From IMG/VR virus record IMGVR_UViG_3300045988_098362: a DNA stretch of 53,272 nucleotides, one strand, 5' to 3'. Numbering within the stretch: the first letter of the stretch is position 1; each line of letters begins with the position of its first letter. Positions 31,127 through 50,628 of this stretch are shown here, in pieces. Source of the stretch: a virus. The position numbers were made by a program, and so were the translations under genes. The notes under the pieces were generated by a model. The model searched no databases. It saw only the letters and a list, made by a program, of their open reading frames with translations, and was not told the DNA's origin.

Positions 31127-32773
31127 ATGGCATGGGGTCCTTTTAATGCTGGCGGTGGCGGCGGTTCGTCCGGCGGCACTGCGGCAGATATTTCCTACGA
31201 CAACAGCAAGTCCGGCATTTCGGCGGCGAATGTGCAGGAAGCCATTGATGCGCTTTCTGTGCTGACCCTGACGATTCAGGCCGTGCCCGCCCAGAGCGGG
31301 AGCCTGACCTATACCGGCTCCACCCAGAGTCCCACATGGAAAGGCTATGACAGCAGCATGATGACGATCGGGGGCGTGACCTCCGGCATCAATGCTGGCA
31401 CCTATACGGCCACGTTTACGCCCATCGGCAAGTATGTCTGGACGGACGGCACGCAGGAAGCCAAGAGTGTGTCGTGGACGATTGGCCGAGCCGAGGTCAA
31501 GAATGTGCCGGCACAGACCGGCAGCGTGACCTATAATGGCTCGGCGCAGTCCCCGTCGTGGAGCAACTATAACAGTTCTCAGCTGACGATCGGCGGCACG
31601 AGCAGCGCAACCAACGCTGGCAGCTACAGCGCCACCTTTACTCCGACTTCCAATTATAAGTGGTCGGATGGGACGACTACGGCCAAGAGCGCTTCGTGGA
31701 CGATCGGCAAGGCGACCGGCAGTATTACGCTGTCCGCAAGCAGTCTGAGCCTGACCTACCCGAAAATCTCTGGCACCATCACTATTACACGGCCGGGCAG
31801 CGGTACGGTGACTGCATCCTCTGGCAATACGGACATTGCAACGGTGAGCGTTTCCGGCACCACTATTACGGTGACGGCAAAGGCGACCGGCAGTGCTACC
31901 ATTACAGTCAACGTGGGTGCAGACACCAACTATACTGCACCGTCCAGCAAGACGTTCACGGTGGCCGTTACGCTGGTGTCCAAAACGCTCAACAGCAACA
32001 GTTGGGCAGTCATCAAGGCCGTCAGCGATGCCGGGCAGGGTGCAAACTATTGGTCTGTTGGTGCCACGAAGTCCGTAACTATCAATGGCAAGGTGGGCGC
32101 AACTACGATCTCCAGCTTGAAAGTTGATGCTTTTATCATCGGCTTCAACCACAACTCCAGTAAAGAGGGAAGCAACCGCATCCACTTCCTGTTGGGCAAG
32201 ATCAGCGGCAAGTTTGTTGGTCTGGTGGATAGCAACTATAGTAACTCCACTTCTACATCTGGTGCGTTTGTGATGAACACCAGTAACACGAACTCTGGCG
32301 GCTGGGGAAGCAGTCAGATGCGGAGCAAGGTGCTTGGTAGCGCAAGCTCTCCCACCAGCCCGACCGCCAACACGTTGCTGGCCGCACTCCCCTCTGACCT
32401 GCGTGCGGTGATGAAGTCCTGCACGAAGTATACGGATAATAAGGGTGGCAGCAATACCGCCAGCAACGTGTCCTCTACCACGGATTATCTGTTCCTGCTG
32501 TCTGAGTATGAGGTTCATGGAACTCGAAACTTTGCCAACAGCGCAGAGCAAAACAGTCAGGCACAGTACGACTACTTTAAGGCGGGAAACAGTAAGGTAG
32601 CCAATAAACATTCCGCCACCGGAACGGCGGCGGTCTGGTTGCTGCGGTCGCCGTCCTGCACCACCGTCTACATCACCTACTACAACTCCTTCTGCGCGGT
32701 TTCGTCGTCGGGGTCGTTGGACTGTGGCGACGCTTACGTCGCGTATGGTGTTGTTTCCGGCTTTGTTGTCTAA
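31127..32773 (+). CDS. DGR target protein: fibre-like receptor-binding protein with Ig-like repeats and a C-terminal variable region
   Basis: An AAGGAGGG SD lies upstream of ATG 31127. The N-terminus GGTAADISYDNSKSGISAANVQEAIDALS is fibre-like. Two 74-aa tandem repeats and a BIG2-like segment follow. The last 47 codons are the VR (AAVWLLRSP...VSGFVV). Confidence 0.8.
   Translation: MAWGPFNAGGGGGSSGGTAADISYDNSKSGISAANVQEAIDALSVLTLTIQAVPAQSGSLTYTGSTQSPTWKGYDSSMMTIGGVTSGINAGTYTATFTPIGKYVWTDGTQEAKSVSWTIGRAEVKNVPAQTGSVTYNGSAQSPSWSNYNSSQLTIGGTSSATNAGSYSATFTPTSNYKWSDGTTTAKSASWTIGKATGSITLSASSLSLTYPKISGTITITRPGSGTVTASSGNTDIATVSVSGTTITVTAKATGSATITVNVGADTNYTAPSSKTFTVAVTLVSKTLNSNSWAVIKAVSDAGQGANYWSVGATKSVTINGKVGATTISSLKVDAFIIGFNHNSSKEGSNRIHFLLGKISGKFVGLVDSNYSNSTSTSGAFVMNTSNTNSGGWGSSQMRSKVLGSASSPTSPTANTLLAALPSDLRAVMKSCTKYTDNKGGSNTASNVSSTTDYLFLLSEYEVHGTRNFANSAEQNSQAQYDYFKAGNSKVANKHSATGTAAVWLLRSPSCTTVYITYYNSFCAVSSSGSLDCGDAYVAYGVVSGFVV
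31283..31726 (+). repeat. Two tandem 222-bp (74-codon) coding repeats, Ig/MBG-like
   Basis: VPAQSGSLTYTGSTQSPTWKGYDSSMMTIGG..AGTYTATFTP..YVWTDGT..KSVSWTIGRA compared with VPAQTGSVTYNGSAQSPSWSNYNSSQLTIGG..AGSYSATFTP..YKWSDGT..KSASWTIGKA. Confidence 0.75.
32625..32764 (+). repeat. DGR variable repeat (VR)
   Basis: 140 bp homologous to 33670-33809 at a constant offset of 1045. Thirteen mismatches in the variable stretch all fall on TR adenines. Confidence 0.9.
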
Positions 32774-32851
32774 TCCCCCGCAGGGATTCTCGACTTACTC
32801 AAGCCCACGGAAGTGGGCGGAAAACAGCAAACTTTCCTCAAAAAATCAAAA

Positions 32852-32881
32852 GGGCGCGTCAGCGCCCCGCGCGATTTTTTG
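32852..32881. terminator. Hairpin plus T-run downstream of the VR gene
   Basis: gggcgc-gtca-gcgccc (or the alternative stem gcgcg/cgcgc) followed by gatttttt. Confidence 0.5.
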
Positions 32882-32986
32882 AAAAAAGATACTGAAAGTG
32901 CTATCACTCAACTGTCTTATGAGTGCATACACGGCACGAAAAATGCTATACAATACTTTCAAAACCTGTTTGTTAGGAGGTATTGT

Positions 32987-33172
32987 ATGGCAACTAACAA
33001 GCGCGTCTTTACACTGCGCCTGTCCGATGAAGTTTTTGACAAGATCGGCGTTCTAGCAACAAAAGAACATCGGTCCATCACGAACTACATAGAGTATGTG
33101 CTGCTCAAGCATTTGGAAGAAGTTGAGCGAGAGCAAGGGGAAATCGACCTCGATGACCCCGAAGGAGACTAA
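32987..33172 (+). CDS. Ribbon-helix-helix (Arc/CopG-like) protein
   Basis: An AGGAGG SD lies 6 nt upstream of ATG 32987. KRVFTLRLSDEVFDKIGVLATKEHRSITNYIEYVLLKHL fits the RHH beta-alpha-alpha pattern. Confidence 0.55.
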   Translation: MATNKRVFTLRLSDEVFDKIGVLATKEHRSITNYIEYVLLKHLEEVEREQGEIDLDDPEGD

Positions 33173-33178
33173 GGTATC

Positions 33179-33637
33179 ATGTCAGTTTTGAAATCCAAGC
33201 GCACAGAAAGCAAAGCGGAGTATGTGAATATCGCCAACGCAATTTACATTGAAACGATAAACTTCCTGACCCGCATTTCCGCAAGGTATTCCAGATTGAT
33301 TGCAGAGCCGGTCGCAAAGCTAGCGGGTGAGGTGATAGACCACGCTGAAAAGGCGAACAGCATCTATCCCTCAGACGATCAGCGGCGCCAGCTTCGCAAA
33401 GCACATCTTCTGGAAGCGCGGGCATCCCTGATGGCGCTGGATGTTCGGTTGACTCACTGCTATCTCATCATGACCCAGAACCCGCAGGGATGTTTCACAA
33501 CTCCCTCAGGGAAAAGTGTCGATGCGAAGAAAGCAACCGAAAGACTGGACAAAATGGCTCAAAAGTTGGGTGAACTGATTGACAAGGAAAACGACCTGCT
33601 GCAAGGCATGATCGGAACGGTCAATCGGAAAGCCTGA
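33179..33637 (+). CDS. avd: Avd-like accessory variability determinant (four-helix-bundle protein)
   Basis: 152 aa, helical and basic. The pattern ...AGEVIDHAEKANSIYP...RRQLRKAHLLEARASLMALDVRL resembles the Avd / 23S-IVS four-helix-bundle family. It lies immediately upstream of the TR. Confidence 0.6.
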   Translation: MSVLKSKRTESKAEYVNIANAIYIETINFLTRISARYSRLIAEPVAKLAGEVIDHAEKANSIYPSDDQRRQLRKAHLLEARASLMALDVRLTHCYLIMTQNPQGCFTTPSGKSVDAKKATERLDKMAQKLGELIDKENDLLQGMIGTVNRKA

Positions 33638-33669
33638 TTTTTAAGTGGGTGTAACTCTGTCAATTCCTG

Positions 33670-33809
33670 CGGCGGCGGTCTGGTTGCTGCGGTCGCCGTA
33701 CTACAACAACATCAACATCAACAACAACAACTACTTCTGCGCGGTTTCGTCGTCGGGGTCGTTGGACTATAACGACGCTTACGTCGCGTATGGTGTTGTG
33801 TCCGGATTT
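33670..33809 (+). ncRNA. DGR template repeat (TR)
   Basis: Non-coding copy of the VR. It is rich in AAC/TAC/ATC triplets (YYNNININNNNY..YN if translated) and lies between avd and the RT. Confidence 0.9.
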
Positions 33810-33987
33810 TGCAATGCTTGGTCACATGGAGTAGCCATAGGTGAAAGACGACCATAGCAAAAGGAGAGGTACTTCCCTGAGGATAAACCTCTAAAACTGC
33901 TTTTCGATATGCTGACACGGACGCTTCTTGCATGGCGCGGGATGCATCTTACCGCGTTTCATGTGCCGGCATAAAGCAGATTAGACG

Positions 33988-35208
33988 ATGCCCTACAATT
34001 CATCTGTACGAGGAGCGAATACTTTTATGACAAGTCAGGAGCGCCATGAAGCACGATACCAGCGCCGCCGGGCAGCACGCCGAGCCAGACAGGAAGCCCG
34101 TTGTGCCGCCCTCGGTTCGTTGGAAGAAGTATTCAGCTACCACACGATGTTCAAATATGGCCGGAAATGCTGCAACGGTGTACGCTGGAAGCAGAGCACG
34201 CAGAACTTTGAGCGGCATCTGTTTTCCCACACAGCGAAGCAGCGGCGGCTTATTTTGGCAAAAAGGTGGCGGCCTAAGAAATACGTTCATTTCACGGTCT
34301 GCGAACGCGGCAAGATTCGTGGGATTGACGCTCCTCATATTACAGACCGACAAATCCACAAGGTCATCAGCAAGGAAGTACTGGAGCCGCTTTACGACCC
34401 CAGCATGATCTATGACAACGGTGCAAGCCGGATTGGTAAGGGACTGCACTGGCAGATCAAGCGCATCAAACAGCAGCTGGCACGGCATTACCGCAAGTAT
34501 GGCCGTGCGGGCGGGGTGTTACTGCTCGACCTGAAGAAGTTCTTTCCTTATGCACCCCATTCCATCATCTATCAGCGGCACCAGCGGTATATCCTGAACC
34601 CTGATTTTCGGCGGATAGCAGATACCATTATTGATACTGCTCCCGGCGAATTTCCGGGCCGTGGGATGCCGCTGGGCGTTGAGCCGAGCCAGCAGGAAAT
34701 GGCGGCGATGCCCAGTGCAGTGGACAACTGGATCAAATGCCAGATGTCCACGCACAGCGCCGGGCACTACATGGACGATTACTGCATTATTCTCCCGGAC
34801 ATCGAAGATCTGAAAAAGCTGGGACGCGCCATCGTGCGCCAGTTTGAAATCCGCGGAATCCCGGTCAACAAGAAAAAATGCAAAATCATCCCGCTGACGA
34901 AGCCGTTCCGCTGGTGCAAGGCTCGTTTTACCTTGACCGAGACCGGAAAAATCAAAGTCAATGGTAGCCGTGATGGTGTGATACGCGCCCGGAGGAAGCT
35001 GAAGCTGTTTCATCGGGAATGGCTGGCCGGGAAACGTACCCTGCAGGAGGTGGCGCAGTATATGAACTGCCAAGAAGCCTACTATAAAAATTTTGATGAC
35101 CATGGGCGGCTGCTGCGCCTGCGGCGGCTTTGCTATGCAATTTTTGGAGGTAGAGTGCCTTGTTCAACAAAATCATCAAAGCCAGTGATGGCACCGTCCT
35201 TGCCTTGA
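33988..35208 (+). CDS. DGR reverse transcriptase (alternative start ATG 34027)
   Basis: YMDD catalytic box (GHYMDDYCII), LGVEPSQ (the DGR-type LGxxxSQ motif) and IRGIDAPHITDRQIHKVISKEVLEPLY...ASRIGKGLHW. Confidence 0.85.
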   Translation: MPYNSSVRGANTFMTSQERHEARYQRRRAARRARQEARCAALGSLEEVFSYHTMFKYGRKCCNGVRWKQSTQNFERHLFSHTAKQRRLILAKRWRPKKYVHFTVCERGKIRGIDAPHITDRQIHKVISKEVLEPLYDPSMIYDNGASRIGKGLHWQIKRIKQQLARHYRKYGRAGGVLLLDLKKFFPYAPHSIIYQRHQRYILNPDFRRIADTIIDTAPGEFPGRGMPLGVEPSQQEMAAMPSAVDNWIKCQMSTHSAGHYMDDYCIILPDIEDLKKLGRAIVRQFEIRGIPVNKKKCKIIPLTKPFRWCKARFTLTETGKIKVNGSRDGVIRARRKLKLFHREWLAGKRTLQEVAQYMNCQEAYYKNFDDHGRLLRLRRLCYAIFGGRVPCSTKSSKPVMAPSLP

Positions 35209-35495
35209 CCGAGGACGTGACCTACATCAAAAAAGCCGACAACGGCTGTTATATCCTCTGCCCGGAGCCTGATGCTTCGGGCATTTCTTATGCCGGCACT
35301 CCGTACCACCTGTTTGGTCGGAAGCCTCTGGATGATGCAGAGAGCGTCATTCTGGAGCCGACCGACATTGGTGGCTGGATTATGGAGGCGAAAGCTGCCA
35401 TCGAGGATGCCGACGAGATGAACGTGGATCAGGCTTATCGCCTGACCCTTCTGGAGTTGAATGTCTCCGATACGGATGACACTGAGAATACCTGA
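35160..35495 (+). CDS. Hypothetical protein (111 aa)
   Basis: A GGAGGT SD lies 8 nt upstream of TTG 35160. It overlaps the RT 3' end by 49 nt. Confidence 0.4.
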   Translation: MFNKIIKASDGTVLALTEDVTYIKKADNGCYILCPEPDASGISYAGTPYHLFGRKPLDDAESVILEPTDIGGWIMEAKAAIEDADEMNVDQAYRLTLLELNVSDTDDTENT

Positions 35496-49770: not shown

Positions 49771-50628
49771 ATGGCAACTGGTAAACGGTACTACTGGATA
49801 AAACTCAAGGATTCGTTTATGAATTCCGAGGTGGTCGATTTCCTGATGAGCCAGCCCAACGGTGCCAACTACGTTGTCCTTTATCAAATGCTCTGTCTCA
49901 AAACCATCAATACGGGTGGTCGCCTTACATGCCAGATAGGCGATGTCATCATACCGTTCGATATGGGAAAGATTCAGCGTGACTGCAAGTGGTTCTCGCT
50001 GGACACCATCCGCATTGCGCTGGGGCTTTATAAACAACTCGGACTTATCTACGAGGAACAGGACGGAACGCTCGTTCTTGTCAACCATGCTGAAATGGTC
50101 GGCAGTGAAACCGATTATGCTGAAAAGAACCGCAGAATGCGCAGTAATGCAGCAAACAAACGGTTACAGGCTGGACAATATAGCGGACACGAAAGCGGAC
50201 ACAATGTGTCCGATGATTGTGGAGAAAATGTCCCCATAGATATAAGAGATAAGAGAAAAGATATAAGAGATATAGAGAATAGAGATAAAGACGATGGTAC
50301 GGCGGCTGTCGATGCTGGCCTGTCTGAGATTATCCGCTCTTTCGAGGACAACATTGGCAGCTTCCCCCCGGCGGCGAGTGATGCCCTGATGGGCTGGCGG
50401 GAGATTTTCACAGATGACCTCATCTTGCTGGCCATCAAAAAGGCTGCACTGGCCGGGATTCGGAAGTGGAACTACGTCAACGGCGTCCTAAAAGCATGGA
50501 AAACTGAGGGCGTAAAAACCATTGGTGATGTGCAGTCCCGCGATGATCGGCGCAAGCCCCCGGCGGGTCAGCAGCAAAAGCCCTCCGCCAAGGATGATTA
50601 TGACGCAATTTTCGGAGGTTTAGGATGA
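49771..50628 (+). CDS. Replisome organiser with a DnaD-like C-terminal domain
   Basis: The N-terminus KRYYWIKLKDSFMNSEVVDFLMSQPNGANYVVLYQMLC resembles a phage replisome-organiser N-domain. The C-terminus LLAIKKAALAGIRKWNYVNGVLKAWKTEGVKT resembles a DnaD domain. Confidence 0.65.
   Translation: MATGKRYYWIKLKDSFMNSEVVDFLMSQPNGANYVVLYQMLCLKTINTGGRLTCQIGDVIIPFDMGKIQRDCKWFSLDTIRIALGLYKQLGLIYEEQDGTLVLVNHAEMVGSETDYAEKNRRMRSNAANKRLQAGQYSGHESGHNVSDDCGENVPIDIRDKRKDIRDIENRDKDDGTAAVDAGLSEIIRSFEDNIGSFPPAASDALMGWREIFTDDLILLAIKKAALAGIRKWNYVNGVLKAWKTEGVKTIGDVQSRDDRRKPPAGQQQKPSAKDDYDAIFGGLG
50236..50290. repeat. AT-rich iteron-like repeats inside the replisome-organiser gene (candidate ori)
   Basis: AGATATAAGAGA occurs at 50238 and 50259 (21-bp spacing), followed by ATAGAGA-ATAGAGATA. 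The region is purine- and AT-rich within a GC-rich genome. Confidence 0.5.

Follow-up and report, generated by a model that had tools for sequence, protein, structure and literature searches.

Does a reverse transcriptase gene that lies beside an imperfect repeat of the end of a tail-fibre-like gene belong to a complete diversity-generating retroelement (DGR), and is that retroelement one that has already been described? The question is raised by positions 31127-35208 (4,082 bp, + strand) of the viral record IMGVR_UViG_3300045988_098362, whose 53,272 nt we refer to as the window. An initial annotation had proposed a complete DGR aimed at the fibre-like gene, and the adenine-specific pair of repeats, the DGR-type reverse transcriptase (RT), the variable repeat (VR) at the 3' end of its target and the helical accessory gene on which this proposal was built were all recovered here. 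The region is almost certainly a complete DGR of the avd-TR-RT type, where TR is the template repeat, carried by a Roos/Taranis-like temperate Faecalibacterium myophage. Every part named in the initial annotation is present (Table 1), although its inventory had missed a structured RNA, RT-2, and a hairpin with a GRNA loop.

The element is already known: its lineage has been published, with experimental support for activity in the phages Roos and Pioen. What we add is the assignment of an Avd-like protein, the reading of RT-2 as a putative spacer RNA in which the ribosome-binding site is paired, a ribbon-helix-helix (RHH) gene within the cassette, the derived TR of this copy, and the frequency with which TR and VR differ in length.

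A published lineage of Faecalibacterium phage retroelements

Megablast aligned all 4,082 bp of the region with the Faecalibacterium phages Roos (PP479939), FP_Taranis (NC_047914 / MG711467) and Pioen (PP479940) at 94.6-95.0% identity. The remainder of the window is Roos-like too, being circularly permuted with respect to the Roos record and 97.8% identical to it in the structural module. Whether the element had been catalogued, a point that the initial annotation left undecided, is answered by these cassettes of 95% identity and by two publications that describe them (PMC5883640, PMC11792537). Cornuault et al. (2018) reported that 10 of 18 F. prausnitzii prophages, Taranis among them, contain DGRs; Mushu and Lagaffe were the only ones in which they found an Avd homologue, and the Taranis target was left without a function (PMC5883640). 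A 2024 study isolated Roos and Pioen, identified their RT, TR and VR, and reported that the VR varies among cognate genomes and in sequencing reads; it placed the VR at the C-terminus of the DUF6273 domain and likened the Pioen target's N-terminal domain to the tail-fibre protein gp105 of Listeria phage A511 (PMC11792537). The terms 'Avd' and 'RT-2' are absent from the main text of the latter paper, and the 2018 paper was not searched for 'RT-2'.

To place the window among its relatives, we used two sets of loci, the first comprising 80 IMG/VR loci (L004-L083) gathered via the RT and the second, independent of it, comprising 10 prophage loci (L086-L095) on bacterial contigs of at least 200 kb, gathered via the exact accessory protein. 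Of the first set, 31 genomes contain both repeats in full, and pairs of TR and VR were counted in these and in the 10 of the second, 41 genomes altogether. Co-occurrence of genes was tabulated over 83 related loci, and nine divergent cassettes, with RTs 67-77% identical to that of the window, were tabulated as well.

Repeats that differ at template adenines

Base-by-base comparison of 32600-32799 at an offset of 1045 resolved a direct repeat of 140 nt, with VR at 32625-32764 and TR at 33670-33809, exactly where it had been annotated. At this offset the sequences are unrelated as far as 32624/33669 and again after the end of the repeat. A repeat finder returned the same pair (family D1, 140 nt, 89%) as the sole long direct repeat in 30-37 kb, and the window holds a single VR, since the invariant core of 31 nt has exactly two copies in it.

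The two repeats differ at 15 positions, 14 of which are adenines in TR. Within the first 103 nt, all 13 mismatches fall on TR adenines, at the very positions that the initial annotation had listed, and the VR carries C at five of them, G at five and T at three; no C, G or T of the TR is altered in this stretch. The remaining two mismatches lie in the last 37 nt, at 32755/33800 (VR T, TR G; the one non-adenine) and at 32761/33806 (VR C, TR A). Given that adenine makes up only 27 of the 140 nt of TR, and 23 of its first 103, the hypergeometric probability of such a distribution is 1.1e-10 for 13 of 13 mismatches and 4e-11 for 14 of 15. Just over half of the TR adenines (14/27) are altered in the window VR.

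Translated, the TR would read ...SPYYNNININNNNYFCAV...LDYNDAY and the VR reads ...SPSCTTVYITYYNSFCAV...LDCGDAY, as had been given. All but one of the TR adenines (26/27) fall on the first or second base of a codon in the VR frame, in AAC, TAC, ATC, GAC and TAT codons, and no stop codon can be reached from the TR by an A-to-N change. The codons open to recoding in this way number up to 18, most of them AAC, TAC or ATC, and the TR-encoded repertoire comes to ~10^15 proteins. The VR ends 9 nt upstream of the stop codon of the target gene.

The same pattern holds throughout the relatives. In the IMG/VR set every VR recovered is distinct (32/32), whereas 30 of 70 TRs are identical. The first set, with its 31 paired genomes, has 406 of 413 mismatches between cognate TRs and VRs on TR adenines, divided into 158 A>T, 130 A>G and 118 A>C; among the 10 loci of the second the count is 130 of 132, and over all 41 genomes it is 536 of 545. 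Hypervariability of the VR, confined to TR adenines, is a property of the whole family. Polymorphisms of the TR that do not involve adenine are, for their part, found again in the VR that shares their genome. One core allele of the TR, GCGCCG...TCTTCGGGGGCGGCGG, recurs in the cognate VR of four prophage loci (L086, L091, L092 and L095), and expansions of a CAACAT unit recur in that of a fifth (L090). Such concerted evolution is expected if the TR keeps overwriting the VR.

A side observation on the first set is that 27 of its 80 loci end inside the VR, at positions equivalent to 32672-32754 of the window. This would be expected if assemblies, or stored scaffolds, break at a hypervariable or repeated segment.

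A reverse transcriptase related to that of BPP-1

All three open reading frames (ORFs) on which the initial annotation relied are present, namely the 548-aa ORF (31127-32773), the 152-aa ORF (33179-33637) and the RT ORF with its LGVEPSQ and YMDD motifs. The identification of the last as a DGR-type RT stood, while its start was moved: rather than at 33988, translation most likely begins at the ATG at 34027, because the segment TATGACAAG is conserved in eight lineages, because gene calls agree, and because a Shine-Dalgarno (SD) sequence precedes it. That sequence, GAGGAG at 34010-34015, lies 11 nt upstream of TATGACAAG, and the gene was called with 392-393 aa in 10 loci from independent assemblies.

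The protein matches Pfam RVT_1 (E 6e-15), and its only sequence match in the PDB at E<=1e-3 is 8ub7_A (E 1e-8). We confirmed that this chain is the BPP-1 reverse transcriptase, bRT, by comparing the window RT with the brt gene in an annotated record of BPP-1, to which it is 23% identical over 297 aa (E 5e-14), and chain B of the same entry was shown to be BPP-1 Avd. Over its full length the window RT is 100% identical to many copies in IMG/VR.

A repeat pair beside an RT gene might also have come from ordinary duplication or gene conversion and adjoin, by chance, an unrelated RT, such as that of a group II intron, a retron or a defence system, and some profile searches did return matches of this kind. 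The best NCBIfam match, itself sub-threshold, is to the group II intron RT/maturase model TIGR04416, and PADLOC defence-RT models give weak generic matches. The group II model, however, falls short of its cutoff (48 bits, with 300 needed), and so does the Drt3a model (17, with 200 needed); no retron RT model is among the PADLOC or NCBIfam matches, and an Rfam scan of the window finds RT-2 only, with no group II intron RNA and no retron RNA. We ruled out a group II intron or retron RT on the sub-threshold TIGR04416 score, the Rfam negatives and bRT as the sole PDB relative. When the LGxxxSQ motif and an adenine bias (P ~1e-10) that recurs in 41 genomes are set beside these results, coincidental duplication is effectively refuted.

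A derived template repeat and frequent differences in length

The TR of the window is a derived allele, unlike the 69 other TRs with which it was compared (L001-L095), and has no exact match in IMG/VR viral contigs or in one scan of metagenome contigs. A CAACAT unit (6 bp) is present in duplicate, which brings the TR to 140 nt from the 134 nt of the consensus; the allele has GTACTAC for the consensus GAACTAC, and reads GACGCTTACGTC where the second adenine patch of the family is AACGCTAACAAT (four A-to-N changes and one T-to-C); one G-to-T and one C-to-T change complete the list. All of these changes are present in the window's own VR as well, which indicates that TR and VR exchanged sequence after the lineage split from Roos and Taranis. 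Judging from the sequence, the allele may have arisen by mutation of the TR followed by homing, or by conversion of the VR back onto the TR, both of which fit. Back-conversion, a smaller possibility beside the two-level regulation proposed below, would, if true, mean that a supposedly invariant template can be overwritten. That the allele is an assembly chimera is unlikely, as the assembly would have had to switch four times between reads of the TR and of the VR, and the non-adenine changes common to both repeats would still lack an explanation.

A second unusual TR was seen in L047 (IMGVR_UViG_3300045988_048237), in which the 5' half is identical to the mutated VR of the same locus, leaving 20 adenines instead of ~29 and 6 mismatches between the repeats. 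Either the VR has truly converted the TR here, or the assembly is chimeric across an identical core of 35 nt.

The derived allele bears on whether the window copy is still at work. The copy may be a DGR by descent that has since been silenced or is decaying, in which case its VR/TR differences would be a record of past homing. Several points favour this view, the first and third of them also counting against our own reading: the activity of this particular copy is suggested by its sequence and by family-level proxies rather than by reads; its TR allele is unmatched in the viral collection and in one metagenome scan; this TR is five adenines short of the family consensus, with a slightly reduced repertoire as the consequence; and several Faecalibacterium phage DGRs show no read-level variation of the VR in culture (PMC11792537). 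All parts of the window cassette are intact, on the other hand, with an RT that many IMG/VR copies share without a single difference, an accessory protein found unchanged in 7,820 assembly blocks and an RT-2 match of 175 bits, and the window-specific TR changes, including the 6-bp duplication, have reached a VR in which 14 of 27 TR adenines are altered. We therefore regard an inactive copy as improbable.

Equal lengths of TR and VR, as found in the window, are far from universal among its relatives, in which TR length ranges from 125 to 146 nt. In 20 of the 41 paired genomes the VR differs in length from its own TR, by 3-12 nt, a number always divisible by three, and always within the AAC/ATC tract; the VR is the shorter in 19 of them and the longer in one, the isolate phage Pioen (TR 134 nt, VR 137 nt). 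In-frame differences of this kind at AAC repeats have been reported for ~7% of DGRs (PMC5758913), and in-frame indels beside AAC repeats have been attributed to slippage of the RT (PMC5758913, PMC12875486). Compared with that ~7%, length discordance is unusually frequent in this lineage.

The target gene and its variable domain

In the 548-aa target, Pfam detects Big_2 and, at aa 417-527, DUF6273 (E 4e-10), and phrog_37900 covers the full length. The genes upstream encode a tape measure, baseplate hub and wedge, a baseplate protein and a tail fibre, and the Taranis orthologue, gp68, is described in RefSeq as 'DUF6273 domain-containing protein... DGR target'. DUF6273 has been reported as a C-type-lectin-like DGR target domain (PMC10743442; bioRxiv 10.1101/2024.10.15.618418; PMC11792537), and it is from this literature that we take the putative C-lectin fold of the C-terminal domain. 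Our own structural results do not confirm it: the AlphaFold2 (AF2) model of the domain is poor, with a predicted local distance difference test score (pLDDT) of 60 overall and below 50 in the VR-bearing part, a Foldseek search of the PDB with this poor model gave no match at E<1, the C-lectin-like matches (Lcl C-terminal domain, CD94) being non-significant at E>1, and a profile search of the domain against the PDB gave no match.

At its N-terminus the attachment of the target is modular. In Pioen it is annotated as a single gene of 745 aa (L003, 2383-4620), fused to the upstream fibre-like region, and in the window, Roos and Taranis two separate genes of 140 aa and 548 aa stand there. An exact-protein look-up recorded neither the 548-aa nor a 607-aa form of the target. 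The cassette as such is extremely common in public assemblies, and the target protein with the window's VR is recorded nowhere in them.

Recoding of this domain would most readily be understood as a means of changing receptor specificity. The target might instead be an adhesin on the virion surface for some other ligand, such as mucus or an environmental surface, and its diversification would then not serve host-range switching. It can be said for this that a receptor and a virion location are only presumed for the target, that Cornuault et al. assigned the Taranis target no function, that the protein contains an Ig-like Big_2 domain, and that intestinal or immune-cell ligands have been proposed in the literature for related DUF6273 targets. 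Yet the target gene directly follows the baseplate and tail-fibre genes, its Pioen orthologue is fused to the A511 gp105-like tail-fibre domain (PMC11792537), and Mtd, the archetypal DGR target with a C-lectin fold, binds a host receptor. On balance an adhesin of this sort seems rather unlikely to us, and binding of a host receptor is the role we favour.

An accessory protein that resembles Avd in predicted fold

The 152-aa protein encoded upstream of the TR had been called Avd-like in the initial annotation, a label that holds for fold, charge and position and not for sequence homology to Avd, which is undetectable. Its AF2 model (pLDDT 92.9) consists of four long helices and one short helix of four residues. 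Foldseek matched this model to five 'Avd-like protein' entries of BFVD (probability 0.84-1.0, E 3e-3 to 0.2), and among PDB structures the best TM-scores were to 2gsc, a five-chain entry (TMt ~0.8). The isoelectric point (pI) of the protein, 9.39, is close to the 9.55 of BPP-1 Avd and falls within the range given for Avd proteins in general (9.5 +/- 0.7; PMC5758913). The gene occurs together with the RT in 76 of the 83 related loci.

Less favourable to the label are the modest Foldseek E-values, as are usual for helical bundles, and the position of 4dwl outside the top 50 PDB matches. Sequence searches were uniformly negative: no Avd-family Pfam match was found for the protein or for 43 diverged homologues, a profile of these 44 members gave no match in the PDB and neither did the single sequence, alignment of the family with BPP-1 Avd by hhalign returned a probability of 0.3%, and NCBIfam and PADLOC reported no Avd homology. 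BPP-1 Avd served as the positive control and was matched to Pfam bAvd. The 152-aa protein is thus best described as probably Avd-like by predicted fold, by charge and by position.

The exact protein is present in 7,820 blocks of a public assembly collection, including contigs of at least 200 kb, one of them from GCA_003604815.1. Its presence on such contigs suggests that the cassette there presumably lies in an integrated prophage.

A structured RNA between the template and the RT gene

Between TR and RT lies a full-length match to the Rfam family RT-2, with 175 bits against a gathering score of 40, which begins 8 nt past the TR. A scan of 13 related loci, some with an RT only 67-77% identical, found RT-2 at the same position in each, and the BPP-1 locus, examined as a control, has the Rfam 'Phage_DGR' RNA in its equivalent TR-brt spacer. 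RNAalifold recovered the RT-2 architecture from eight diverged copies, with compensatory changes at 15 pairs. Weinberg et al. defined the RT motifs as RNAs near RT genes; they associated one of these, RT-10, with the spacer of BPP-1 and speculated that further motifs have a like role in other DGRs (PMC5737381). By analogy, RT-2 would be the DGR spacer RNA of the present lineage, the positional equivalent of the spacer RNA of BPP-1.

The RNA also reaches into the start of the RT gene. The SD sequence GAGGAG at 34010-34015 forms the 3' strand of a long-range closing helix, in which ~33899-33906 pairs with 34008-34015, and this pairing is backed by compensatory changes in diverged relatives. Folding of RT-2 and translation of the RT may consequently be mutually exclusive.

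Hairpins and the 3' boundary of the repeats

In all 41 paired genomes the repeats end alike, the VR in ...CCGGCTTT and the TR in ...CCGGATTT, and the A/C difference at 33806/32761 is fixed in every pair (TR GGATTT, VR GGCTTT). Fixed as it is, this difference is a discriminator between TR and VR of the kind known from initiation of mutagenic homing (IMH) sequences and their TR counterparts (IMH/IMH*), and not a product of mutagenesis.

Two hairpins follow the VR. The first overlaps the stop codon, and in a divergent lineage has CTC/GAG for CCC/GGG, a compensatory change. The second, at 32803-32818, is near-invariant in 58 loci, including a divergent lineage in which its flanks are different. 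Phage DGRs have a GC-rich stem with a 4-nt 5'-GRNA loop downstream of the VR, which is required for efficient homing in BPP-1 (Guo et al., PMC3240598). The hairpin of the window has a stem of 6 bp and stands 38 nt from the VR, in both respects just outside the ranges for phage DGRs (7-10 bp and 4-34 bp; PMC3240598), and this tells to some degree against the correspondence. In form, the 3' end of the repeats resembles an IMH/IMH*-type boundary and the hairpin a GRNA-loop hairpin of DGRs, and by comparison with BPP-1 both are predicted to act in homing.

Organization of the cassette and possible regulation

The features of the region are collected in Table 1.

Table 1. Coordinates of the retroelement and adjoining features in the window.
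Feature	Position	Strand	Description
DGR target gene (548 aa)	31127-32773	+	Big_2 Ig-like domain, C-terminal DUF6273 with VR; last gene of the tail/baseplate/fibre module
VR	32625-32764	+	Mutagenized positions 32655-32727; last ~37 nt IMH-like, non-mutagenized; discriminator at 32761 (VR C, TR A)
Short hairpin over stop codon	32772-32788	+	AATCCC-CCGCA-GGGATT; DNA fold
Candidate DGR target-site hairpin/cruciform	32803-32818	+	GCCCAC-GGAA-GTGGGC; 6-bp GC-rich stem, 4-nt GRNA loop; 38 nt past VR
Arc/CopG-like RHH gene (61 aa, pI 4.65)	32987-33172	+	Between target and avd-like gene; SD AGGAGG 6 nt before ATG
Avd-like accessory gene (152 aa)	33179-33637	+	Predicted basic helical bundle, directly upstream of TR
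TR	33670-33809	+	27 adenines, 26 at codon positions 1/2; no reachable stop
Structured RNA RT-2 (RF03077)	33817-34036	+	Fills TR-RT spacer; overlaps RT ribosome-binding site and start codon
DGR RT (393 aa from ATG 34027)	34027-35208	+	LGVEPSQ, YMDD, RVT_1; longest ORF from 33988
Acidic 111-aa ORF	35160-35495	+	Overlaps last 49 nt of RT gene; phrog_29248 (unknown function); pI 4.06

The small RHH gene has a weak Pfam match (RHH_7) and a PHROG match to 'Arc-like repressor' (E 2e-6), and gene calling in 10 prophage loci gives it 61 aa. Most relatives have it. In six of the nine divergent cassettes its product is 75-83% identical to that of the window, which exceeds the conservation of the RT (67-70%) and of the target (51-60%); in the other three of the nine tabulated it was not detected. 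A role for this protein as a regulator of DGR expression or of late genes is possible. Downstream of the RT, the 111-aa ORF is present in 82 of 83 loci and is 50-72% identical in divergent cassettes; we regard it as a conserved neighbour and no more than a possible member of the DGR.

Taken with the pairing of the RT ribosome-binding site, the RHH gene raises the prospect that as many as two levels of control act on this DGR lineage, folding of RT-2 gating translation of the RT and the RHH protein controlling transcription of avd-TR-RT. This is a tentative proposal, to which we give a minor though real chance, and we hold the accompanying idea that RT-2 is a functional spacer RNA, acting in both priming and recognition, with the same reserve. 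If true, two-level regulation could explain the on/off activity of DGRs that has been reported in Faecalibacterium phages.

Elsewhere in the window, scans for tRNAs and tandem repeats gave nothing relevant to the DGR. A tandem array at 50238-50288, in the non-structural part of the genome, consists of ~7 copies of the 7-nt unit AGAGATA (or 2.4 copies of a 21-nt unit).

A model for diversification of the target

The adenine-specific repeat pair, the kinship of the RT with bRT, the RNA family with its covariation and the concerted change of TR and VR invite a model along the lines of mutagenic retrohoming as defined for BPP-1 (PMC6182149, PMC3240598), from which priming by the spacer RNA, the complex of RT and accessory protein, the roles of IMH and hairpin, and receptor binding by the target are carried over by analogy. 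A transcript spanning the avd-like gene, the TR, the RT-2 RNA and the RT gene would be made, and the RT-2 RNA just 3' of the TR would be recognized by the RT and its proposed partner, the basic accessory protein with a helical-bundle fold. The complex would then reverse-transcribe the TR with misincorporation opposite template adenines, and the resulting cDNA would replace the VR at the 3' end of gene 31127-32773, guided by the invariant 3' segment that both repeats share (IMH-like, with A/C at 33806/32761) and by the hairpin at 32803-32818. Up to 18 codons of the C-terminal DUF6273 domain, predicted to be C-type-lectin-like, could thereby be recoded, with no stop within reach and ~10^15 proteins accessible, and the likely outcome would be an altered specificity for a receptor or ligand.

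As a discovery the value of the locus is small, since it adds one more genome to a published group of Taranis-/Roos-type DGRs. Its annotation nevertheless gains in that gene 31127-32773 can be labelled a DGR target and the 152-aa gene an Avd-like accessory protein, the 2018 description of Taranis having reported no Avd homologue. RT-2, a family whose function Rfam leaves open, becomes readable as the putative TR-RT spacer RNA of a DGR lineage that is experimentally active. The lineage is very widespread in human-gut assemblies and, with its frequent in-frame length differences and clear concerted evolution of TR and VR, offers a convenient natural system for the regulation of DGRs and for slippage of RT on AAC repeats.

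Comparison with known systems

BPP-1 (mtd-avd-TR-brt) provides the archetype. Like it, the window has a target with a 3' VR, a small basic accessory gene, a TR, a structured spacer RNA and an RT, and the two further share adenine-specific TR/VR differences, a target that adjoins tail-fibre genes, a hairpin after the VR with a GC-rich stem and a GRNA loop, and related RTs (E 5e-14, 23% identity). The initial annotation had equated the two gene orders; set against the annotated BPP-1 record, the succession target-VR/avd-like/TR/RT agrees, whereas the window has the additional RHH gene after the target, between it and the accessory gene. The differences extend to the accessory protein, which is unrelated in sequence and has 152 aa rather than 128, bAvd being matched by BPP-1 Avd alone; to the target, built of DUF6273 and Big_2 instead of Mtd domains; to the spacer RNA, RT-2 in the window and Phage_DGR in BPP-1; and to the hairpin, which in the window is 38 nt from the VR with a 6-bp stem.

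Closer in their targets are the DUF6273 DGRs of other gut phages (Toutatis/Lelie, the nd4/nd12 'tentaclins' and the Mtd-like target2), which likewise have a DUF6273 target with the VR at the C-terminus of the domain. They differ in having two targets, one of them Hoc-like or a tentaclin, compared with the single VR of the window, whose target has Big_2 N-terminal to the C-terminal DUF6273.

Closest of all are Roos, Taranis and Pioen, with an RT 99.5% and an accessory protein 99.3% identical and the same order of target (DUF6273), RHH gene, avd-like gene, TR, RT-2 and RT. From these phages the window is set apart by a VR of its own and by its derived TR of 140 nt, where theirs has 134 nt.

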